Shown: piece after piece, positions 996 through 36,660 of the stretch
Numbering within the stretch: the stretch's first letter is position 1
Layout: every line of letters begins with the position of its first letter
NCBI GenBank assembly: GCA_903918885.1
Contig: CAIXFY010000030.1
Coordinates: 39,324 to 103,323, forward strand
Source: an uncultured Verrucomicrobia subdivision 3 bacterium
GTDB lineage: Bacteria > Verrucomicrobiota > Verrucomicrobiia > Limisphaerales > UBA11358
Reading direction: 5' to 3'
DNA length: 64,000 nucleotides
Made by a program: the position numbers and the translations under genes
The notes under the pieces: generated by a model
Told to the model about the DNA's origin: nothing
Databases searched by the model: none
What the model saw: the letters and a program-made list of their open reading frames with translations, nothing else

Positions 996-1076
996 CTTAA
1001 TCCTAATCTTAATCCTAATCTTAATCGGCTTCTCGGTTCAGTTTGGGATTACGATTAAGATTAGGATTATGATTAC
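996..1076. repeat. Hexamer-periodic inverted repeat (hairpin) between divergent polX and thiD
   Basis: 996-1026 reads (CTTAAT/CCTAAT)x5. 1047-1076 is its imperfect reverse complement. A perfect 17-nt stem forms between 1010-1026 (taatcctaatcttaatc) and 1053-1069 (gattaagattaggatta), with a 26-nt loop. Confidence 0.6.
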
Positions 1077-1947
1077 GAGAACAACTTTGCCCGTCGCGCT
1101 CACCATCGCCGGCTCCGACAGCGGCGGCGGCGCGGGCATTCAGGCCGATTTGAAAACCTTCGCTGCGCTTGGCGTCCACGGCACGAGCGCGATTGCTTGC
1201 CTGACTGCGCAAAATCCCAAACGCGTGCTCGCCGTCGAACCGTGCTCGCCCAAAATGTTGCGCCAGCAAATCGAAGCCGTGTTTGAAGAATTGAGTCCGG
1301 CGGCGGTGAAAACCGGCATGCTGTTCTCGGCGGAAAATATTCGGGTCGTTGCCAACTTTTTCCGCAACTCAAAACTAAAAACTAAAAACTTAAAACTCGT
1401 CGTCGATCCCGTGATGGTTTCCACCAGCGGTGCGCGATTATTGCAGCCGGCGGCAGAAAAAATCCTGCGCGAAAAACTGTTGCCACTCGCCGCGCTCGTC
1501 ACGCCGAATTTGGACGAGGCCGAAATTCTCGCCGGACAAAAGATTTCCTCGCCCGAAGACCTGCGTTCCACCGCGCGCACAATCCATTCGCGCTACGGCT
1601 GCGCGGTATTGGTGAAAGGCGGCCACCTCAAGAATTCCCTCATGGCCATTGATGTTTTCTTTGACGGCGAAACCGAGCTACTCCTGTCCGCGCCGTTTGT
1701 GAAAGGCGTTTCCACGCACGGCACCGGCTGCACTTATTCCGCCGCCATTTGCGCTGCGCTCGCGCTTGGTCACGGTTTGCCGCACGCGGTGGAGATTGGG
1801 AAAATTTTTATTACCGAAGCCATTTCCAACAGCTACCAAATCGGCAAACACTTCGCACTCGGCCAAGTTAAAAATTCGGACTGCGCAGCCGGAAAAACTG
1901 CGCCGCGTTCGTCATCGGCACGGACAAAATGTTCGTGCTGCCCGTAA
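1069..1947 (+). CDS. thiD: hydroxymethylpyrimidine/phosphomethylpyrimidine kinase
   Basis: TIAGSDSGGGAGIQADLKTF, VVDPVMVSTSG and GTGCTYSAAI motifs. The last ~25 codons are unconserved-looking and overlap the convergent protease gene, so the true C-terminus is uncertain. Confidence 0.85.
   Translation: MITRTTLPVALTIAGSDSGGGAGIQADLKTFAALGVHGTSAIACLTAQNPKRVLAVEPCSPKMLRQQIEAVFEELSPAAVKTGMLFSAENIRVVANFFRNSKLKTKNLKLVVDPVMVSTSGARLLQPAAEKILREKLLPLAALVTPNLDEAEILAGQKISSPEDLRSTARTIHSRYGCAVLVKGGHLKNSLMAIDVFFDGETELLLSAPFVKGVSTHGTGCTYSAAICAALALGHGLPHAVEIGKIFITEAISNSYQIGKHFALGQVKNSDCAAGKTAPRSSSARTKCSCCP
1366..1398 (+). repeat. 33-nt AT-rich heptad element (CTNAAAA-like x4) in frame inside thiD
   Basis: aactcaaaactaaaaactaaaaacttaaaactc encodes [11 protein letters not shown]. 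It is 30/33 identical to 35613-35645 inside ribH, and the flanks are unrelated. Confidence 0.8.
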
Positions 1948-3427
1948 GCGTGGCGGAAAAATTGTTCGTGCTCCACGTTGGCGCGGCCAGATTCGTCGTC
2001 GCCTCCACACAGAAACCCGCCGGATAAACCGGCCACGTCAAAACCGCATTCGTGCCGGTGCGAGCGAGCGACAATTGTGTCGGCGCAAAGGCAAACGCTA
2101 GCGCGTAAGTCTCATTATCGCTCACGACATTCGTGCCACCGTTTTTCAAAATTTGCAAATCGTAACTGCCTGCGTCGAGTCTCGCAAAAAAGATGTGCTC
2201 CACATTATCCACGCGGCTTGTGCTGCACGCGACGAGGTTACTGCTGGCGCAATCGTATAGAAACAAGTCGAGGTCGTTGATGTTCGTTTTGCCAAGCTGA
2301 CGATTCCATACAAGCGTGGCCACAACAAAACCATTGGTGGCATTGAAGAAATAATGGTTCACCGCATCGTTTGTCGCGGTGCTGGAGATGCTTTGCAAAT
2401 TCCACCCGCTGTTCGCGGCCACGACATTTGTGACCGCAATCGGCGGATGCGCCGCACCCGTTAAAATAAAATCCGTTGCGCTGGGATTGTATTTTCCACC
2501 CGCCAGCTGCTTGTAAGAATTAAAAACATTCAGCACGCCCGCGCCGTAGCGGGCATCGAGCGGCGAGGAATTTGAATTCGTCCAGTTCGCCGGCTTCACT
2601 GCGCCGTTGAGCAGCAGCGCTTTGATTGTTCGCAGATCAAAGGCGGCATTGGTATCGCTCCCGCCGTCACCGCGCAAGGCGGCTTGCATCAGCACCGCCG
2701 CCGCACCGGAAACTTGCGGCGTGGAAAAGCTGGTCACGCCCGAGGGCGCGGTGATGTCTGGTTTGCACCGGCCATTGTCCAAGGTCGGACCGGTGCTGGA
2801 ACTGCCACCGTAAGCCGCCACACCAATCCCGTTGTAGCTGGTGGCTGCTGGACTTACTGAACCACTATTACCCGCGCCGGAAATAAAAAGCGTGCCGTAT
2901 TGCGCGGCATAATCATCGTAGGCGGAATCAATTTCCTGCTGCTCACCGACGCTGGCATGACCGCCGTTCGTCTCGGTGAAAATAAAACTTTGATTCACAA
3001 CGGAATCATTAAGCACCATCAAATTGCTGACGACGTAAGTGTTGACGAAATAATTCGCGTCAAAGTTGTCCACACGCGCCACGTTAGTTGCGACACCACT
3101 TCCGGTCATGCCATAAAAGTTCGCCCCCACGCCGTCCGCGTGGCCTGATTCGCTGCCGACGCTATTGGGATAATTCGTGGCCGTCCCTGCCGCCGAAGCG
3201 TAAGTAAACCGATTCGTCGGCTGGCCCACCGACGCTGGATTGACCTCGAAGGCGGGCGCGCTCGCCTCCGGCTGAGCGACACGGATACCGGAGCCGTCCA
3301 GATTGGTCGTCTGCGTCCGCAAAAGCGTCACCCCAATCTGGTCAAGGTTTTGCGCCCGCGCACTCACACCGAAAATGCCCGTCAACAAACCGGCAAGCAG
3401 GATGGTCTGGCGAATCAATGGGTTCAT
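1868..3427 (-). CDS. secreted subtilisin-like (S8) serine peptidase
   Basis: Signal peptide (LLAGLLTGIFGVSARA). His motif SGHADGVG, oxyanion FISGAGNSG, Ser motif TSFSTPQVSGAAAVL. The Asp-motif position is atypical (IRVAQPEAS). The C-terminal ~90 aa form a beta-rich tail. Confidence 0.8.
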   Translation of the reverse strand: MNPLIRQTILLAGLLTGIFGVSARAQNLDQIGVTLLRTQTTNLDGSGIRVAQPEASAPAFEVNPASVGQPTNRFTYASAAGTATNYPNSVGSESGHADGVGANFYGMTGSGVATNVARVDNFDANYFVNTYVVSNLMVLNDSVVNQSFIFTETNGGHASVGEQQEIDSAYDDYAAQYGTLFISGAGNSGSVSPAATSYNGIGVAAYGGSSSTGPTLDNGRCKPDITAPSGVTSFSTPQVSGAAAVLMQAALRGDGGSDTNAAFDLRTIKALLLNGAVKPANWTNSNSSPLDARYGAGVLNVFNSYKQLAGGKYNPSATDFILTGAAHPPIAVTNVVAANSGWNLQSISSTATNDAVNHYFFNATNGFVVATLVWNRQLGKTNINDLDLFLYDCASSNLVACSTSRVDNVEHIFFARLDAGSYDLQILKNGGTNVVSDNETYALAFAFAPTQLSLARTGTNAVLTWPVYPAGFCVEATTNLAAPTWSTNNFSATLTGSTNILSVPMTNAAQFFRLRSPNF

Positions 3428-3532: not shown

Positions 3533-4270
3533 GTGATTGACACCCTCGTCGTCAATGAAATCTATTTGAGCCTGCAAGGTGAAAGCACCTTCGCCGGCTT
3601 GCCGTGCGTCTTCATCCGGCTCACCGGCTGCGACCTGCGCTGCTCCTATTGCGACACCGCCTACGCATTTACCGAAGGCAAAAAGCAAACGCTCGCGGAA
3701 ATTTTAGAAAAAGTTCGAGCATTGGCCGCGCCCTTCAAAAACTCACCACTCACCGCTTCGCCACTGCCCTTGGTTGAATTGACCGGCGGCGAGCCATTGC
3801 TGCAGAAAAATTCCCTACCGTTGATGAAAGCACTCTGCGACGCCGGTTTCACCGTGCTGATTGAAACGAGCGGCGCGCATGACATTTCTAAAATTGACTC
3901 GCGCGTCCGTCGCATCATGGATTTAAAATGTCCGAGCAGCGGCGAAGTGGGGCGAAATCTTTTTTCCAACCTCGCGCATCTAAAAGCCACGGACGAAATC
4001 AAGTTCGTCATCGGCATGCTCGAAGATTACGAATGGACGAAAGCGCAAATCGTCACGCACAAGCTGGCAGGCTTGTGTCCCCTGCTCTTGTCGTGGGTGC
4101 ATCCGCTCGCGCCGCAGCAGCAAAATAAAGTTCTCAAACCAGTTCCCGCCGGACTCTCGCCAATTTCGCGCAAAGAGTTGGTGGAAAAAATCATCGCCGA
4201 CGCGTTGCCCGTGCGGTTCCAAATCCAGCAGCACAAAATCATCTGGCCGCCGGAACAACGCGGCGTTTGA
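3533..4270 (+). CDS. queE: 7-carboxy-7-deazaguanine synthase (radical SAM)
   Basis: GTG start. EIYLSLQGEST...CVFIRLTGCDLRCSYCDT contains the CX3CX2C cluster in the QueE context. Confidence 0.85.
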   Translation: MIDTLVVNEIYLSLQGESTFAGLPCVFIRLTGCDLRCSYCDTAYAFTEGKKQTLAEILEKVRALAAPFKNSPLTASPLPLVELTGGEPLLQKNSLPLMKALCDAGFTVLIETSGAHDISKIDSRVRRIMDLKCPSSGEVGRNLFSNLAHLKATDEIKFVIGMLEDYEWTKAQIVTHKLAGLCPLLLSWVHPLAPQQQNKVLKPVPAGLSPISRKELVEKIIADALPVRFQIQQHKIIWPPEQRGV

Positions 4271-15328: not shown

Positions 15329-15661
15329 TTACGCGACGGCCTTGTCGAGGCTGGCCTTCAAATCGCGTTTGCTCTTGGCACCGACCATCTGTTCGGAGAC
15401 CTGGCCGCCCTTGAAGACTAGCAGCGTGGGAATCGCACGGACGCCATATTGCGCGGCGAGACCGGGATGTTCGTCAATGTTGACTTTGCCGATTTTGGCT
15501 TTGCCTTGGAACTCGGTGGCGAGTTCATCGAGCACGGGCGTAATCATTTTGCAGGGTCCACACCATTCGGCCCAAAAATCCACGAGCACGGGCGCGGTGG
15601 ATTTGAGCGCTTCGGTTTCGAAGTTATCTTGAGTCAAGGTGACGATTAGTGGGGATGCCAT
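15329..15661 (-). CDS. trxA: thioredoxin
   Basis: [12 protein letters not shown] active site, 110 aa. Confidence 0.92.
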
Positions 15662-15666
15662 ATTTT

Positions 15667-16143
15667 TTAGCTGGAGAAATTTTCAACAACGTTTTTCAAA
15701 GTGAGAAAAACCCAGACTACGCCGCCTATAGCAACAAGGCTGGCAAAGGCAGCGGAGAAAATCAGAACTTTGTCCAATGTCTTGATGGAAGGAACGACTG
15801 GAGCGGCGGCGCGCTGTGCTACGGGAGCGGCTTTTTGTGCGGCTGTAGGAGCAGCGCCAGATTTGGCAGCGGCGGCGGCGGCGGGAGCCGCTGGCGCGGC
15901 CGCTGTCCTTAACGCGGGGGCTGGTGCGGTTGGTGCGGCTGCGACAGACACTGGACTGGGCGCACCGGTCGGGCCGCCGGGCGGCAAGGTTGGCAGCTTG
16001 ATGGTTGGAGCCGCAGTCGGTTTGGGCGGCAAATTGATACGGACAGTCTCTTTTTTCGGCTGAACCTTGCCGGTGGATTTCTTCAATGGTTCGGCACCGG
16101 TTGGCGTGCCAGGCAACGGATTGTTCAGAGGTGTGTCGGCCAT
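15667..16143 (-). CDS. Pro/Ala-rich tail-anchored membrane protein, hypothetical
   Basis: Low-complexity P/A/T region followed by a single C-terminal TM ([20 protein letters not shown]). Lies 5 nt upstream of trxA on the same strand. Confidence 0.5.
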
Positions 16144-16273
16144 AGTCTTTTGAAGATAAGCAGAGCGCCGCTGCTGTCAAATTTAATTCCGGGGGGAAAT
16201 GAAATTAAAATCCGGATTGGACTGGGTATATTCGTTTCTGACTTGCAAATGGAATCGGCCAAAAAACTTTAAA

Positions 16274-17656
16274 TCAGGTTTTTTCCTCGATTAATTCGCG
16301 CCTTGCACTACCCAAAAGCTGTTCGACAAAATTCGTCGAATAAACGCCGCGCCGGAAATTCGGATCCTGCATGATGGCCTGTTGGAATGACATCGTGGTT
16401 TTGACGCCGGTGATCATGTATTCGCTCAACGCGCGGTTCATACGGTCAATCGCATCGCGGCGATCTTTGCCGCGCACGATGAGCTTGCCAATCATCGAAT
16501 CGTAGGTCGGTGGAATCGTGTAACCCGCGTAGGCATGCGTGTCTACGCGCACTTCGCGACCACCAGGTTGATAATACATTTCAATGCGCCCTGGGCTGGG
16601 GCGGAAGTCATTGAAAGGATCTTCTGCATTGATACGGCATTCGATGGCATGACCTTTCATCACGATGTCGCTTTGCGAATAACGCAGCGGTTCGCCCATC
16701 GCAATTTCAATCTGCGCCCGCACGAGGTCAATGCCTGTGACCTCTTCCGTGACCGGATGTTCCACCTGGATGCGTTTGTTGACTTCGAGAAAATAGAAGT
16801 TGCCGTTGTCATCCACGATGAACTCAACCGTGCCGGCATTCGTGTAGCGCGCTGCCTCGGCGATGCGGATAGCGGCTTTGCCGATTTTTTCGCGCAATTT
16901 TTTGAATTTGTATTCCAGCAACGGCGAAGGGGATTCCTCGATCAATTTCTGGTTGCGGCGTTGCACTGAGCAGTCGCGTTCGCCAAGATGGATGATTTTC
17001 CCTTTGGTGTCGCCGAGAATCTGAATTTCAATATGGTGCGGATTCTCGATGAATTTTTCGATGTAAACCCCGGAATTGCCGAAACACTTTTCCGCTTCGG
17101 ATCGTGCGGTGTGGTAGCCTTTAACCAGCGAAATATCATTGTGGGCGATGCGCATACCGCGTCCGCCGCCGCCCGCCACAGCTTTGATCATCACTGGATA
17201 GCCGATGCGTTTGGCATTGGCCAACGCATCTTTTTCATTTTCAACGATGCCTTCAGATCCCGGCGGTGTTTCCACGCCCGCTTTTTTGGCGAGTGCGCGG
17301 CTAACCGCCTTGTCTTCCAGTGCGCTCATTGCTCTGGCGCTGGGACCAATGAAGCGGATATTGCAACTTTCGCAGACTTCGGCGAAGTGGGCGTTCTCGG
17401 ATAGAAAACCATACCCCGGATGAATCGCATCAACATCGGCAATTTCCGCCGCGCTGATAATCCGATCAATGCGGAGATAACTTTCCGACGAAGCCGCCTT
17501 ACCGATGCAAATCGCCTCGTCAGCCATCTGAACATGCATGGAGTTCGAGTCAATCTCCGAATACACCGCGACGGTGCGGATATTCAATTCTTTGCAGGCG
17601 CGGATGATGCGAACGGCAATTTCGCCGCGGTTGGCGACCAGAATCTTTTCAAACAT
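16274..17656 (-). CDS. accC: acetyl-CoA carboxylase biotin carboxylase subunit
   Basis: [39 protein letters not shown]-like [13 protein letters not shown]. Confidence 0.95.
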
Positions 17657-17682
17657 GGTAAATGAGGTGGATGAAAGTCCGC

Positions 17683-18153
17683 TTAAGTGGGGCGAATTTT
17701 AAATAACGCCTGTCCAAATTCAACCGGCTTACCGCTTTCAACCAAAACTTGTGTAACTACACCCTTCATTTCGGCCTTAATTTCATTCATCACTTTCATG
17801 GCTTCAATGATGCAGACCACAGTTTCGGCGTTTACTTCCGTCCCAACATCGACATAGGGAGCAGATTCTGGCGAGGGTGAACGATAAAAAGTTCCAATCA
17901 TCGGTGATTTTATATCTATTTCACCCGTGTTTGTGGGTGCAGATGCCGCCGGAGCGGCAACCGGCAAGGCAGCGACCGGAGCGAGATATGGCAATGAAGA
18001 GACTGGGGTAGGCTCATCGCCTTGAGCAGCAATAGATCCGGAAGCGATTCCACGCTTTAGTCGTAGTTTGGAATCCTTTTCTTCCAGTTCAAACTCTGTT
18101 ATAGAGTTCTTTTTCATCAAATCAATGATGGCTTTGATATCTTTTAGTTCCAC
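17683..18153 (-). CDS. accB: acetyl-CoA carboxylase biotin carboxyl carrier protein
   Basis: Biotinyl-lysine motif [12 protein letters not shown] Pro/Ala linker precedes the lipoyl-like domain. Confidence 0.9.
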
Positions 18154-18324
18154 AGTAGTGATTCGTTAAAGTTTTTGAAAAGTTGACTAATTTGAGATTT
18201 AAAAGGAAAAATGAGAGAATTAAGCAGTGAATTGATTCATTTATTGGAAAGCATATTTATCTATCAATGAATCGTCAAGCTATTTTTAGAAATAGCTAAC
18301 GACTGCCCGGTGGGTAAAATTTTG

Positions 18325-18765
18325 CTATTTATCTGTTTCGTTAACGAAAACTGAAGCTTCAAGACCTAAAATATAAGATTTTTCGCCAAATCCACATATC
18401 TGCCCCTTGCAAACCGGAGCAATCAGCGACTTGTGACGAAATTCCTCGCGCGCATGGATATTGGAAAGATGAATCTCAATCGTCGGCACGCCAACCGCAG
18501 AAATGGCGTCCCGCAAAGCAACGCTCGTGTGCGTGTAGGCGGCGGCGTTGACGACAATCACCTGAAACTTACCTCTTGCTTCTTGAATCCAACTGACCAA
18601 TTCACCTTCCTGATTCGATTGACGAAAATCCACTTCGACTTTCAATTGCACTGCCCGTTCGCGGACTTTGGCCTCAATATCCGCCAAAGTCGTTCGTCCA
18701 TAAACTTCCGGCTCGCGTGTGCCGAGCAAGTTAAGATTCGGACCATTCAGGAAAAGAATCTTCAT
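18325..18765 (-). CDS. aroQ: type II 3-dehydroquinate dehydratase
   Basis: [18 protein letters not shown] and [16 protein letters not shown] motifs. Confidence 0.9.
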
Positions 18766-18774
18766 GGCGTTAGC

Positions 18775-20166
18775 CTAGCCAACGGTTCGATTTTTGTCGA
18801 ATTGAATCCCGGTTCCTGCAACCGCCGAACCCATGAGTGTGAACGCCACCCACGCGGTTGCTGGGATATATAAGCCGAATTCTCCCAGTCCCTGGAGAAA
18901 CCAAGCGAGCAGTCCCATGAATATGGCAAAGGCGATTAAATTTTCCTTTTGCCATGCTCTTGCGCCGACCGCCGCCAAAGCCAGCGCAATCCACACGGCA
19001 TAGCTGATGCCGCCGATGAGACCGGAATCGGAAAACTGTTCGAGGTAATCATTGTGTGTCAGCCGCGCCATTTCGGATTCAAGTGCTTTGATGTGCGCAT
19101 AAGGCCGCTGAAAAGTTCCCGGGCCGGTGCCAAAAAATGGTTGCGCCGCCGTCGTCTGCACCGCCGCGCGCCAATAATCCAAGCGGGCGCCAGCGCTAGT
19201 GGCTCCGCTGGCGAAATACTGGTGAAAGCGGACGGAAAAGATCCCCAGTCCCAAAATCAACACTGCCGCCACTGCGACAAATTTTATTTTTTTTGCCCAA
19301 TCCAGCCGTATTAAAAATAGTCCGCAAATTACGATGCCAATGAGCCAGCCGAGTTTGGATCCGCTCCAATAGAACGCTGCGCCGCCCAGAAAAACCACCA
19401 GCGCAATTACTGCGCTGCGAATGGCGGGTTTGAGATTTTTTGTCGCGCCGAATGCCAGCGCGAGCGACACCGGCCAGAGGAGTAGGATGATTCCTGCCAA
19501 CGCGTTCGGATAGACCAGCGTGCCGGAAACACGTCCCTTTTGGAATTTGGCCAAGATGAGCGGATTCGCCACCTCAGTGCCGTTGGTGTTGATAATAATG
19601 CCATCAAGCTTCATGGTGCTAACGGCTTGTGGCGGATAATTCGTCCAGCCGCAGCGCTCGCCTTCGGTCAAAAACTGAAGACTCTGCGGATACTCAAACA
19701 ATTTTTGGTCCACCGCACGGATCAGGCAGAAAGTGAATGCGGCCAGCACCCCGACCAACAGCCAGTGCGTCAAATTTTTGTTGGCAAAGAAAAAAATGCC
19801 GAGAAAATAACAGGCCACGCAGCCGGAAAATTGCCAGAGTGTCGCCGCCGTCAATTCAGCATCCACGGTTTGGGTCGCGGAAACAAACTGCCAGCCGAGC
19901 CAGAGTAACGGCAGCCGCCAGAGCCATTTTGAGCGCGGCCAGCAAAACTTCTGCTGAACAACGAGCCATCCGCCAATAATTGCCAGCGGCAAAAAAATCC
20001 AATTTGCCCAGTGTAACGGCCATGGTTCATCGAGAAATTCCGACAGCGTGACTGGCGCGGTAATTTTGTGGTCGAGGATTACGGGGTTGCCAAATTTCCA
20101 GATGCAGAGGCCGAGAAAAAGTCCGAATGCGAGCGCGTAAGTTTTCGTCGCGGTGAATTTTTTCAT
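18775..20166 (-). CDS. O-antigen ligase (Wzy_C/WaaL)-like polytopic membrane protein
   Basis: About 11 TM helices. Periplasmic loop motif RLTHNDYLEQFSDSGLIGG, typical of the O-antigen ligase domain. Confidence 0.7.
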   Translation of the reverse strand: MKKFTATKTYALAFGLFLGLCIWKFGNPVILDHKITAPVTLSEFLDEPWPLHWANWIFLPLAIIGGWLVVQQKFCWPRSKWLWRLPLLWLGWQFVSATQTVDAELTAATLWQFSGCVACYFLGIFFFANKNLTHWLLVGVLAAFTFCLIRAVDQKLFEYPQSLQFLTEGERCGWTNYPPQAVSTMKLDGIIINTNGTEVANPLILAKFQKGRVSGTLVYPNALAGIILLLWPVSLALAFGATKNLKPAIRSAVIALVVFLGGAAFYWSGSKLGWLIGIVICGLFLIRLDWAKKIKFVAVAAVLILGLGIFSVRFHQYFASGATSAGARLDYWRAAVQTTAAQPFFGTGPGTFQRPYAHIKALESEMARLTHNDYLEQFSDSGLIGGISYAVWIALALAAVGARAWQKENLIAFAIFMGLLAWFLQGLGEFGLYIPATAWVAFTLMGSAVAGTGIQFDKNRTVG

Positions 20167-30587: not shown

Positions 30588-30800
30588 CAGCAAAACCGGC
30601 CAACCCCAGCGCCGTAGGCGCGGCTGACAATAGCCCGCAGTTTCAACTGCGGGTTCCGTGCGCCAGATAAAACCCAGTCCCGGAGGGACGACCGGATTTC
30701 CCGCCATCCGTCTGCCGCCCCGCTGGGGCTTGATCGGTTTTGGTAAGACCACCCGCAGTTGAAACTGCGGGCTATTTTCGGTCGTCGCTCCGCGACTTCA
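30588..30800. repeat. REP-like composite hairpin cluster (two units in opposite orientation)
   Basis: gacaatagcccgcagtttcaactgcgggt (30626-30654) and its inverse acccgcagttgaaactgcgggctattttc (30750-30778). Small hairpins gtcccggagggac and gtcgctccgcgac. caaaaccgg..ccccagcg (30591-30611) pairs with cgctgggg...cggttttgg (30720-30743). Same family as 63195-63535. Confidence 0.65.
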
Positions 30801-34030: not shown

Positions 34031-34194
34031 TTGAAAAACCTCGACGCCACCAACCCCTCGCCAATGAGATTTGAAAAAATACTTCTTCACTTTAACCAAA
34101 ATTAAGTGTGCAACCAGCAAAATTTGTCCGAGCATCGATAAAATTCACGAATGATGTGACATTTTGCGGCTTCCAGATTAGTTTGTCCGCGCCG

Positions 34195-35394
34195 ATGAAA
34201 ACCAAATTTGATTCCATCGAGGCCGTCCTCGCCGACATTCGCAAAGGAAAAATCGTCATCGTCGTGGACGACGCCGACCGCGAGAACGAGGGCGACCTCA
34301 TCTGCGCCGGCCAGCACACCACGCCCGCCGCCATCAATTTCATGGCCAAACATGGCCGCGGTTTGATTTGCGTCTCCACCACCGGCGAACGGTTGCAACA
34401 ACTTGGCATTGAGCAAATGGTGCAGCGCAACCGCGAGAGCCACCGCACGGATTTTCAGGTCAGCGTGGACGCCGCCAAAGGCATCACCACCGGCATCAGC
34501 GCCGCCGACCGCGCGAAGACCATCCAGATCATGTCCGCGCCCGTCGCCGTGCCGGAGGATCTGGTGCAGCCCGGCCACATCTTTCCGCTGCGCGCCAAAT
34601 CCGGTGGCGTGCTCCAGCGCGCCGGCCATACCGAAGCCACCGTGGATTTGGTGCGCCTCGCCGGCTTGCGGCCCATCGGCGTGCTGTGCGAAATCCTCAA
34701 TGACGACGGCACGATGGCGCGGCTGCCGGAACTGCTGAAATTCGCCAAGAAGCACAAGCTGAAAATCTGTTCCATCGCCGCGCTCATCGAATTCCGCCGC
34801 ACGCGCGAGAAACAGGTCGAGGCGATTGAAGTCATCAAGCTGCCGACCGACTACGGCGATTTCGATTTGCACTTGTATCGCTCCAAGCTCGACGGCCAGC
34901 ATCACCTCGCGCTCGTGCGCGGCGATTTGGCCGGCAAGAAAAATGTCCTCGTCCGCGTTCACAGCGAATGTCTCACCGGCGACGTCTTTGGTTCGCGCCG
35001 CTGCGACTGCGGGCCGCAACTGCACACCGCCATGCGGCAGGTGGCCGAGGCCGGCTGCGGCGTGATTCTTTACATGCGGCAGGAAGGCCGCGGCATCGGC
35101 CTCGCGCCGAAGATTCAGGCTTACAAATTGCAGGAGCAGGGCTACGACACCGTGGAAGCGAACGAAAAGCTCGGCTTCAAGATGGACCTGCGCGAATACG
35201 GTCTCGGCGCACAAATCCTCTGTGATCTCGGCCTGAAAACCATCCGGCTGCTGACGAACAACCCGCGCAAGATTGTCGGCCTCGAAGGTTACGGCTTGAA
35301 AATCACGCAACAGGTGCCCATCAAAATAAAATCCAACCCGCACAACGAGCGCTACCTGAAAACCAAGCGCGAGAAGCTGGGGCATTTGCTCTGA
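34195..35394 (+). CDS. ribBA: bifunctional 3,4-dihydroxy-2-butanone-4-phosphate synthase / GTP cyclohydrolase II
   Basis: [15 protein letters not shown] (DHBPS) and [19 protein letters not shown] (GCH II zinc site). The ATG at 34195 is preferred over 34108. Confidence 0.9.
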
Positions 35395-35411: not shown

Positions 35412-35891
35412 ATGTTAAAACCCGTCCAAACCAAATCCATCCGCGCCGCCGGCGGCACGTTCGCCATCGTCGCGTCGAAATATAATTCCCGTTTCGTGGA
35501 CGCCATGCTGCGCGCGGCAAAAGCGGAAATTCTCCGCGCTGGCGGCAAAGTGCAAATCGTCCGCGTGCCCGGCGCGTATGAAATTCCCGTCGTCGCCGCG
35601 AAGCTGGCGGCGAACTCAAAACTCAAAACTAAAAATTCAAAACTCTCCGCCATCATTTGTCTCGGCGTCATTTTGCGCGGCGCGACGACCCACGCGCAAC
35701 ACATCGGCGAGGCCGTGAGCAACGCGCTCGTGCAGATTCAGATTCAGCATGAAGTGCCAGTGATTCATGAAGTGCTGCTGTTGGAAAACGAGCAGCAGGC
35801 CGTCGAGCGTTGTTTGGACAAAAAACACAATCGCGGCACGGAGGCGGCGCAGACCGCTTTGGAAATGGCGCGCGTGATGGCGGCTTTGTGA
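35412..35891 (+). CDS. ribH: 6,7-dimethyl-8-ribityllumazine synthase
   Basis: [43 protein letters not shown]. Confidence 0.9.
35613..35645 (+). repeat. 33-nt AT-rich heptad element in frame inside ribH
   Basis: aactcaaaactcaaaactaaaaattcaaaactc encodes [11 protein letters not shown]. It is 30/33 identical to 1366-1398 in thiD and lies in the same reading phase. Confidence 0.8.
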
Positions 35892-35964
35892 AACAATTCA
35901 CAATCGCCTTGCGAGACGGGCTTGGCAATGCTACTTTCCGGCTGCTCAAAAATTCAAAATTGTT

Positions 35965-36660
35965 ATGAAAAAATCTCTTTTGCTTATCGTGCTCGGACTG
36001 TTCGCCGCCGCGCAAATCCACGCCGGCGATGTCACCGGCACCATCACCTTCAAGGGCGCGGCCCCGGCGGAAAAGGAATTGACGCCCATCAAGGACGACC
36101 CGAATTGCGCGATGCTGTATCCGGCTGGTTTGCCGAAGACGAAGTTTTACGTCGTCGGCGCGAACGGCGAGCTGGCGGACGTGATTGTTTCGCTCAAGGG
36201 AATTTCCGACAAGTCCACCGGCGCGAGCGCGGCTCCGGCGACGCTCGACCAGAAGGGCGCGCTTTACGTGCCGCAAATCATCGCCATCCAGACCGGACAG
36301 AAGCTCATCGTGAAAAATTCCGATCAGCTCGTCCACAACGTCCACACCCAGCCCACGGCGAATCCCGAATCCAATCAGGTGCAGATGGGCGGCGGACCGG
36401 ATTTGACCTACACGTTCGACAAGCCGGAAGCGTTCTTAAAATTCAAGTGCGACGTGCATCCGTGGATGTTCGCGTGGGTGACAGTGGTGGATCATCCGTA
36501 TTTCGCCATGAGCGACAAGGACGGCAAATTCACCATCAAGAACGTTCCCGCTGGCAAATACACACTTGAAGCCGCGCACCGCAAGCTCGGCACGCAGACT
36601 GCCGAAGTCGAAGTGAAGGCCGACGGCGCGGCGCAGAACTTCACGTTCGAGGTGAAATAA
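35965..36660 (+). CDS. exported type-1 copper (cupredoxin) protein with C-terminal CarboxypepD_reg-like domain
   Basis: Signal peptide. Candidate T1Cu ligands are His in LVHNVH plus CDVHPWM (Cys-x2-His-x2-Met). C-terminal block DKDGKFTIKNVPAGKYTLEA. Confidence 0.6.
   Translation: MKKSLLLIVLGLFAAAQIHAGDVTGTITFKGAAPAEKELTPIKDDPNCAMLYPAGLPKTKFYVVGANGELADVIVSLKGISDKSTGASAAPATLDQKGALYVPQIIAIQTGQKLIVKNSDQLVHNVHTQPTANPESNQVQMGGGPDLTYTFDKPEAFLKFKCDVHPWMFAWVTVVDHPYFAMSDKDGKFTIKNVPAGKYTLEAAHRKLGTQTAEVEVKADGAAQNFTFEVK

Follow-up and report, generated by a model that had tools for sequence, protein, structure and literature searches.

Heptanucleotide arrays translated in frame within thiD and ribH of an uncultured verrucomicrobial bacterium are probably tolerated simple-sequence cassettes

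Heptameric repeats were noted in 2007 to be over-represented in bacteria (cited by Rehm et al., 2015; PMC4692102), and they are a class that is still poorly characterized. Here, we describe two 33-nt arrays of heptanucleotides in a stretch of 64,000 nucleotides from an uncultured Verrucomicrobia subdivision 3 bacterium (assembly GCA_903918885.1, contig CAIXFY010000030.1, positions 39,324 to 103,323 of the forward strand), hereafter referred to as the window. The arrays lie in frame within thiD and ribH and belong to a known, still unexplained class of heptanucleotide arrays with four to five units. They share the 7-nt head-to-tail period and the unit number of this class, and arrays of the AAAACTN type are found both between and within genes. 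Our analysis makes it probable that both elements are translated and tolerated simple-sequence arrays in permissive loops.

In Geobacter metallireducens, 49 elements each consist of four GGGACCG/GGACCGG heptanucleotides in tandem, and a second class comprises 15 sites with five MTYCTGA repeats (Aklujkar et al., 2009; PMC2700814). These elements are located inside and between genes and their function is not known; the authors proposed that they act as regulatory RNAs or as sites for global regulators (PMC2700814). The arrays of the window resemble the Geobacter elements in having four to five head-to-tail units of 7 nt. Geobacter has many copies of the same unit per genome; two full copies and one decayed copy, with unrelated flanks, are found in the 64-kb window. 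The GC-rich Geobacter unit contrasts with the AT-rich, G-free unit found here. PMC2700814 describes no arrays translated in frame within conserved enzyme loops, no unit replacement at orthologous sites, and no swapping of alleles. In Xanthomonas and Nostoc, dispersed GGGNATC and GGGGA(C/T)T heptameric repeats are enriched within 50 bp of the ends of open reading frames (ORFs) and for the most part transcribed, and their preference for four units was ascribed to G-quadruplex formation (Rehm et al., 2015; PMC4692102). When rotated to AATCGGG, this unit is one base off the AATCGGC arrays that occur in thiD of relatives of the window. In contrast, the AACTCAA arrays are free of G, yet they have the same length preference as these G-rich repeats. 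With zero G and no G-tract, the window arrays fall outside the quadruplex-forming GGGNATC subfamily.

Dispersed tandem heptamers with several unit families per genome, called short tandemly repeated repetitive (STRR) sequences, were reportedly described in Calothrix PCC 7601 by Mazel and colleagues in 1990, with a function that is said to be not known. The STRR heptanucleotides of cyanobacteria have been used mainly as fingerprinting targets, and we know of no description of in-frame enzyme-loop cassettes among them. Calothrix, the classic example of such repeats, belongs to a different phylum and its units differ from those found here; AACTCAA-type arrays are present in cyanobacterial records too. 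Rickettsia palindromic elements (RPEs), which are 100–150 nt long, palindromic, and have hairpin potential, lie in frame in coding genes and fall in surface regions of housekeeping proteins. Like RPEs, the window arrays would be selfish or neutral nucleotide elements that are tolerated when translated; unlike RPEs, they are 33-nt direct repeats without self-complementarity. The small dispersed repeats (SDRs) of Nostoc punctiforme are said, in a 2008 study by Elhai and colleagues, to have conserved specific sequences of 21–27 nt and a mobility inferred from insertion polymorphisms. The window arrays are similar to SDRs in being shorter than 40 nt, in their presence or absence at orthologous sites, and in having no encoded function, but SDRs are not tandem heptamers. 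Among the hallmarks of miniature mobile elements, presence/absence polymorphism is seen at ribH, while hairpin, target-site duplication, and clean gain are not. Finally, contingency repeats such as those of Haemophilus also have a 7-nt unit in or near genes and are in principle prone to slippage, but their arrays are long, vary by single units, and switch surface genes; the 7-bp repeats of H. influenzae hmw1A are one case mentioned in PMC8262952. Unlike these, the arrays described here are short and of fixed length, no single-unit variants were seen, and the hosts are the housekeeping enzymes ThiD, RibH, and QueE. The arrays and their host genes are as follows.

1069..1947, + strand: thiD, hydroxymethylpyrimidine/phosphomethylpyrimidine kinase (TIGR00097, 294 bits, with a cut-off of 205).
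1366..1398, + strand: AACTCAA-type array of 4.7 units, in frame in thiD codons 100–110 (Tandem Repeats Finder and pattern search).
3533..4270, + strand: queE-like radical SAM gene of the 7-carboxy-7-deazaguanine synthase family (TIGR04349, 253 bits, under the curated cut-off of 300).
3740..3766, + strand: degenerate 27-nt heptad remnant in queE, AACTCAC CACTCAC CGCTTCG CCACTG, in frame, with the peptide NSPLTASPL.
34108..35394, + strand: ribBA, with ribH directly downstream.
35412..35891, + strand: ribH, 6,7-dimethyl-8-ribityllumazine synthase (TIGR00114, 110 bits against a cut-off of 84.6).
35613..35645, + strand: AACTCAA-type array of 4.7 units, in frame in ribH codons 68–78 (Tandem Repeats Finder and pattern search).
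35941..35964, + strand: short A-rich repeat of about 2.5 units, CTCAAAA ATTCAAA ATTG, a weak and tentative member of the arrays.

The thiD array (1366–1398) reads AACTCAAAACTAAAAACTAAAAACTTAAAACTC and the ribH array (35613–35645) reads AACTCAAAACTCAAAACTAAAAATTCAAAACTC. They are identical at 30 of 33 positions, lack G entirely, and have a GC content of 0.21–0.24, compared with about 0.56 for the whole window. Each consists of about 4.7 copies of the unit AACTCAA (four whole units plus 5 nt), and both begin at codon position 1 and have identical registers. The 11 codons are followed by VVDPVM in thiD and by SAIICLG in ribH, and the sequences flanking the two arrays are unrelated to each other. 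Tandem Repeats Finder assigned a period of 7 to both, with 4.6 and 4.7 copies and 92% and 84% matches. These results bear out the initial annotation, which was made from the sequence alone and described nearly identical 33-nt in-frame elements of about 7-nt periodicity, in the same phase and with unrelated flanks. With a degenerate 33-mer pattern and up to three mismatches, the thiD and ribH arrays were the only two sites found in the window, and 100 dinucleotide-preserving shuffles of the window gave no match under the same threshold. When 33-nt segments were scanned for at least 80% self-match at lags of 5–10, these two arrays were also the sole lag-7 cases in the 64 kb.

Compared with a perfect (AACTCAA)x4.7 array, each of the two is identical at 30–31 of 33 positions, and beyond this consensus they have one variant base in common and no others. 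For two nearly perfect arrays that have one unit and one register in common, an identity of 30/33 does not exceed expectation. The initial annotation argued for copying, insertion, or gene conversion of a short element; a direct copy or gene conversion between thiD and ribH is unsupported, as the mutual identity equals the identity to a perfect repeat, and the match would follow from a common unit and register with no recent gene-to-gene copy required. The array is immediately preceded by CGC and followed by GTC in thiD, and by GCG and TCC in ribH; no target-site duplication was found at these flanks. Neither array has terminal inverted repeats or a palindromic hairpin, and, being G-free direct repeats, both are incapable of Watson-Crick self-pairing of any strength. 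No complementary array was found anywhere in the 64-kb window, and no promoter-like or terminator-like sites were found at the arrays. A whole-window cmscan yielded one tRNA and two Acido-Lenti-1 RNAs and nothing else, and no thiamine pyrophosphate or flavin mononucleotide riboswitch reached the Rfam gathering score in the window, in agreement with the absence of riboswitches reported earlier. Nothing was found for a reading of the arrays as promoters, terminators, or curated RNAs.

In both proteins, the array peptide lengthens a loop ahead of a strand, as had been proposed. The ThiD loop sits between helix 88–99 and strand 109–112 of an AlphaFold2 model and is four residues longer than in the solved ThiD structure 7r8y. 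The RibH loop, between helix alpha2 and strand beta4, is seven residues longer than in Aquifex lumazine synthase (1hqk). The predicted local distance difference test (pLDDT) score of the RibH model is below 50 at residues 71–75 (mean 83.7), and that of the ThiD model drops to 68 at residues 101–110, with 87 and 81 in the neighboring blocks. The loops of ThiD, RibH, and QueE all close with a Leu codon that begins the next strand. Both peptides match precisely the translation of a heptamer repeat. Rare codons are found throughout the arrays: TCA accounts for 8% of Ser codons, ACT for 10% of Thr codons, CTA for 3% of Leu codons, and TTA for 4%. Such codon use speaks for a sequence that is dictated by the nucleotide repeat, not by the protein. 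The array peptide has a 7-residue period (NSKLKTQ and so on), and NSKLKTQNSKL is the translation of a perfect AACTCAA repeat. As this unit contains a stop codon in no phase and 33 nt correspond to 11 codons, translation simply runs through the array and yields a disordered loop. Convergence at the protein level was ruled out by the rare codons and by orthologues that have other units at this site, so the earlier proposal of a cause at the nucleotide level stands.

The site in thiD was compared among the best 120 ThiD homologues, which are 79–100% identical; the close relatives are Verrucomicrobiae metagenome-assembled genomes (MAGs). In the following, L numbers refer to DNA loci and P numbers to homologous proteins that were compared. 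Each of the 120 has a cassette at this position, with a length of 11 residues in 118 cases. The peptides vary and correspond to the heptamers AACTCAA, AATCGGC, AATTGGA, AATCCGA, and CATCCTC, as well as AATTCAA, AATCGGA, AATCCGC, ATTCCGC, and AATCGTC. Mostly, they fit a translated 7-nt repeat with 0–3 mismatches, compared with 5–8 for most control 11-mers from the same proteins. A perfect (AATCGGC)x4.4 array predicted from the peptides was found at the thiD site in the DNA of L001, L206, and L207. The units connect through single-base steps, mixed arrays exist (e.g., NWKSEIGNRKL), a decayed cassette (GSKLGIKKLKL) persists among the homologues, and array types are scattered across the ThiD tree. 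In a search of genome contigs with ThiD, the nearest relatives among the matches listed had 75–85% identity. More distant orthologues (L002 at 75% and those at 65% or less) lack the cassette and have a loop that is 4–5 residues shorter. These patterns indicate that the thiD insertion is lineage-specific, and the initial annotation's alternative of an ancient loop peptide already carried by distant orthologues does not hold.

Array alleles are swapped between orthologous thiD genes by short-patch homologous recombination. The ThiD proteins P0173 and P0218 are identical at 282 of 292 residues but have unrelated arrays (NPKLKTKNLKL and NRQSAIGNRQL, respectively). Over 1.19 kb, their DNA (L204 and L206) hardly differs, apart from changes that cluster around the array. 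With L207 as an outgroup, 24 of the 25 changes derived in L204 fall in one tract of about 60 nt (gene positions 297–357), which comprises the array and a few substitutions on each flank. The imported L204 array is identical to the thiD array of the window at 30 of 33 positions. This tract is the evidence for the exchange, and the gene conversion envisaged in the initial annotation is therefore retained for orthologous thiD alleles, although not for thiD and ribH.

The ribH locus is more variable. Among 120 close RibH homologues, an AACTCAA-type array is present in 52, a CGCGCCT-type array in 16, and RQSTLNSQL in 11, and two have a 12-nt stump that is exactly 21 nt (three units) short of the full array and reads AAC TCA AAA TTA in the DNA of L209 and L210. 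A further class, with 33 homologues, lacks an array and has the length of Aquifex lumazine synthase, seven residues shorter than the window protein. Between empty and array alleles, 15 nt are replaced by 36 nt. The CTCGCGC unit of the L083 ribH array occurs once in array-less alleles (AAG CTCGCGC GCG), which suggests a local seed, and at least this ribH array appears to have grown from local sequence. A similar role for CAAAACT in the RAQNFS alleles was ruled out, as their DNA reads CAG AAT TTT. Three contigs allowed thiD and ribH to be paired, and two genomes with array-less ribH keep the thiD array on the same contig. When the loci are compared by repertoire, the CGCGCCT-type allele found in 16 RibH homologues is missing from ThiD. 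A separate repeat within ribH, (CAGATT)x2.5 at 35733–35747 with the peptide QIQIQ, is conserved at the protein level in relatives. Downstream of ribH, the tentative repeat at 35941..35964 stops 3 nt short of the ATG of the ORF at 35965..36660, and this leader position is that of many metagenomic AAAACTN arrays.

In queE, the third host, the degenerate remnant occupies the helix-to-strand loop where relatives have full arrays of 33 nt and 11 codons. The L003 array (NSKLNTQNSKL) is identical to the window ribH array at 30 of 33 positions, the L207 array reads NAQLKTKSAKL, and the L001 array (NRKSAMGNGQL) is identical to the thiD array of the same genome at 28 of 33 positions.

Beyond these genes, a metagenome scan for AAAACTN x4 gave at least 120 loci; of the 120 listed, 69 are on contigs with a GC content of at least 0.5. 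None of the matches listed lies in thiD or ribH, and most are intergenic, often in leader position. Among the 116 listed arrays that were measured, the length peaks at 33 nt, with 72 at 32–35 nt; 44 begin with AACTN on the left and 67 end with a full unit on the right. In an independent collection, a complete scan of IMG/VR viral contigs for the same pattern (115 loci, L211–L325), 57 of 112 arrays are 31–33 nt long, followed by a sharp drop. These viral contigs include giant-virus bins, and a few (L216 and L225) have arrays in both orientations. In 2.16 Mb of collected loci, there are 235 period-7 arrays, compared with 2–61 for each other period, and arrays of other units also concentrate at 30–34 nt (48/136). 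Array pairs on the same contig have a common unit in 29 of 116 cases (25%), compared with 6.7% across contigs. Of these 29 pairs, 13 are inverted, several of them 10–230 nt apart. Among the 69 GC-rich loci listed, 15 have the ATG of an ORF of at least 100 codons within 25 nt downstream on the A-rich strand, compared with 4.8 expected and two on the other strand. ORF analysis of the DNA matches identified further in-frame hosts among genes from other phyla, which encode a histidyl-tRNA-synthetase-family protein, an ABC ATPase, a class I (Trp/Tyr) tRNA synthetase, PNPase, penicillin-binding protein PBP1, and a glycogen debranching enzyme. A protein search with (NSKLKTQ)x6 mainly gave spurious short ORFs across long arrays between genes of cyanobacteria, Thiodiazotropha, and Verrucomicrobia and no list of host families. 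With queE, tRNA synthetases, PNPase, PBP1, and glycogen debranching enzyme among the hosts, a link to vitamin genes and riboswitches looks coincidental, as the initial annotation had allowed. In addition, the further copies, the abundant polymorphism, and the shuffles without a match stand against its alternative of a solitary low-complexity similarity.

Several arrangements in these collections deserve mention in their own right. Inverted array pairs occur in L192 (7935–7966 and 8101–8128), L117 (10808–10839 and 10922–10949), L200 (3514–3546 and 3622–3654), L129 (1792–1815 and 1826–1851), and L175 (2550–2573 and 2600–2623). Such pairs could give stems of about 30 bp with arms able to pair in several registers, and the A-rich arm of the L192 pair stops 1 nt before an ATG. 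Relatives also have heptad arrays of other units, namely AATTCGG, CGTCACY, AAGTTCA, and AACATTC; such further arrays are found in L207 (990–1015 and 15410–15437), L001 (9883–9915 and 14140–14163), L005, and L009. Five heptad arrays lie within 3.2 kb in L005 (3041–6249), and two CATTCGT arrays 2.8 kb apart flank thiD in L009 (9874–12828). The 5' region of the window thiD has a long hairpin at 993–1082 (-39.8 kcal/mol, z = -8.2), whose arms are tandem 6-nt repeats: TCTTAA/TCCTAA x5.3 at 995–1026 and the complementary GATTAA/GATTAG at 1047–1078. The thiD AUG (1069) is within the right arm, and the hairpin is possibly a translational control device in place of a riboswitch. It is conserved in L001 (-35.7 kcal/mol, z = -7.5), and L204 has a different repeat-armed hairpin (GTGACAA/GTCACTC) slightly further upstream of the thiD start. 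An inverted GATTTAY-type pair that resembles the window hairpin is found in L003, from a Verrucomicrobiia MAG, at 15419–15444 and 15471–15496, a few bases upstream of the start of an aminotransferase gene (15503). At its 3' end, thiD overlaps a convergent S8 peptidase gene (1868..3427, - strand) by 80 nt (1868–1947), and the same overlap occurs in L001 (10800–10879). It encodes a Cys-rich ThiD tail of about 35 residues (...KCSCCP) that is disordered in the model, with a pLDDT below 50 at residues 256–292. Elsewhere in the window, the two Acido-Lenti-1 matches lie about 100 nt apart at 30608–30653 (- strand) and 30752–30797 (+ strand), with 45.8 and 44.5 bits and a gathering score of 37. The region at 16000–20000, especially 18088–18399, has the lowest GC content (0.50–0.51) and dense AT-rich stretches, and it may be a foreign or regulatory island.

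Different explanations may be considered for the arrays. Chance likeness between two A-rich stretches has a negligible probability: both are of low complexity and the intergenic regions of this genome are AT-rich, but the shuffles and the lag-7 scan, with only two such repeats in 64 kb, rule this explanation out, and the cassette sites are conserved in relatives. Phase variation, by which gain or loss of one unit would toggle thiD or ribH and subpopulations would live on vitamins of the community, is very improbable. It would fit a 7-nt unit within an ORF, as 7 is not a multiple of 3, and hosts that are cofactor genes. DNA loops of at least 5 nt escape mismatch repair, which would also favor such a switch. 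Heptanucleotide contingency repeats do exist in Haemophilus, as mentioned in PMC8262952. However, the arrays have only 4.7 units, their hosts are housekeeping enzymes rather than surface, virulence, or restriction-modification genes, and among 240 homologous proteins and 12 sequenced alleles no 7-nt variant was seen (differences of 0, 18, and 21 nt), a count in which frameshifted alleles are under-reported by the protein databases. We also regard it as improbable that the arrays are functional RNA or DNA cis-elements that put thiD, ribH, and queE under common control, be it as an unstructured G-free ribosome standby or enhancer patch, as a partner of a complementary array or antisense RNA, or as a protein-binding platform. 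The excess of arrays ahead of start codons at the listed GC-rich loci, the mini-array ahead of the ORF at 35965, the inverted same-unit pairs, the repeat-armed hairpin over the thiD start codon, the perfect arrays kept across thiD genes with differences at 20% of positions, and the absence of a riboswitch from the window are all in its favor. Nevertheless, the unit varies between orthologues, 33 of the 120 close relatives have ribH without an array while two of these keep the thiD array, and the 64-kb window has neither a complementary array nor promoter-like or terminator-like sites at the arrays. Moreover, decayed arrays such as GSKLGIKKLKL in ThiD and the remnant in the window queE persist without apparent cost.

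A rather unlikely explanation is a discrete 33-nt micro-element, AACTN(AAAACTN)4, that is copied and pasted into new sites, including coding loops, by an unspecified mechanism. The thiD, ribH, and queE copies would then be insertions of one family or ectopic conversions between loci. The unit, the register, and both boundaries are alike in unrelated genes, the composition looks foreign, and the array-less ribH alleles show no local seed for the AT-rich array. In addition, lengths are quantized near 33 nt with preferred ends among the matches listed, units are shared more commonly within than between genomes, the thiD and queE arrays of L001 are similar, ribH shows presence/absence polymorphism, and for published families the number of copies with the same unit is 49 to about 185 in a genome. 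However, inverted termini and target-site duplication are both absent, and a clean 33-nt gain is not seen, as the net gain is 21 nt in ribH, about 12 nt in thiD, and about 24 nt in PNPase. Orthologous sites hold many units joined by single-base steps as well as mixed arrays, the GC-rich ribH array matches local sequence, and the thiD and ribH arrays have only one variant in common beyond the consensus. Furthermore, we know of no enzyme for such copying and pasting of 33-nt arrays. More speculatively, the arrays may be written and kept perfect by a dedicated process, or may be RNA address tags that co-regulate cofactor genes; we give these ideas a low probability. A candidate process would be sequence-independent, with a product of about 33 nt, equal to five 5-nt cores at 7-nt spacing, and could overwrite loops in essential genes; it could be a templated activity for repeat synthesis or repair, or else a mobile element of very small size. 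As candidate address tags, the arrays would pair with complementary arrays and thereby co-regulate the riboswitch-less thiD, ribH, and queE. The unit-independent length ceiling, the preferred ends, and the sharing of units within genomes are compatible with such a process or such tags, and plain slippage does not explain them.

The probable reading of the thiD and ribH elements as translated and tolerated heptanucleotide arrays would work as follows. In this verrucomicrobial lineage, the arrays sit in permissive surface loops between a helix and a strand, in no fewer than three housekeeping enzymes (ThiD, RibH, and QueE). Tandem duplication or slipped-strand events would create them and keep them repetitive, with a ceiling of about 33 nt. 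Each locus has its own array allele, alleles with other units or without an array circulate among close relatives, and exchange proceeds through short-patch homologous recombination, as seen at thiD. The origin of a new unit and its spread through all copies of an array are steps that we only infer. Most likely, the array is not needed by the enzyme and is a tolerated, nucleotide-driven cassette with no proven function.

Several observations weigh against this reading. The ThiD array length is constant in 118 of 120 homologues, whereas slippage predicts variation in unit steps, and the length peak at 31–34 nt with a sharp upper edge is unlike a plain microsatellite model. No local seed for the AT-rich ribH array was found in the array-less alleles whose DNA was compared. 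Perfect AATCGGC arrays are identical between thiD genes with 20% of positions different, which suggests homogenization, selection, or repeated transfer. Both thiD and queE have arrays of the same two unit families, AACTCAA and AATCGGN, and in L001 the arrays of these two genes agree at 28 of 33 positions, a hint of exchange between the loci or of a common constraint. Thus, the fixed length in thiD, the ceiling near 33 nt, the preferred ends, the perfect arrays in diverged genes, and the recurrence of unit families across loci are not explained by plain slippage. Finally, the enrichment upstream of start codons may indicate a cis role of at least some arrays.

Judging from the sequences compared, three features appear to go beyond the published accounts that we found: G-free arrays with the same length preference as G-rich ones, orthologous enzyme loops with 11-codon cassettes of different units, and cassettes that are swapped through recombination tracts of about 60 nt. 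As G-free arrays have the same preference for about 33 nt, G-quadruplex formation cannot be the general explanation of this length. The lumazine synthase is widely used as a nanocage scaffold, and for protein engineering, the cassettes hint at loops that tolerate 7–11 extra residues, for example the alpha2-beta4 loop of this enzyme. The cassettes are small hypervariable patches in conserved housekeeping genes, and because they move in 60-nt tracts, alignments, phylogenies, and calls of horizontal transfer can be misled. Taken together, the verrucomicrobial thiD, ribH, and queE genes provide a natural experiment, with the same site and length, different units, and alleles with and without the array, which makes the origin of the arrays, their homogenization, and any cis function testable.

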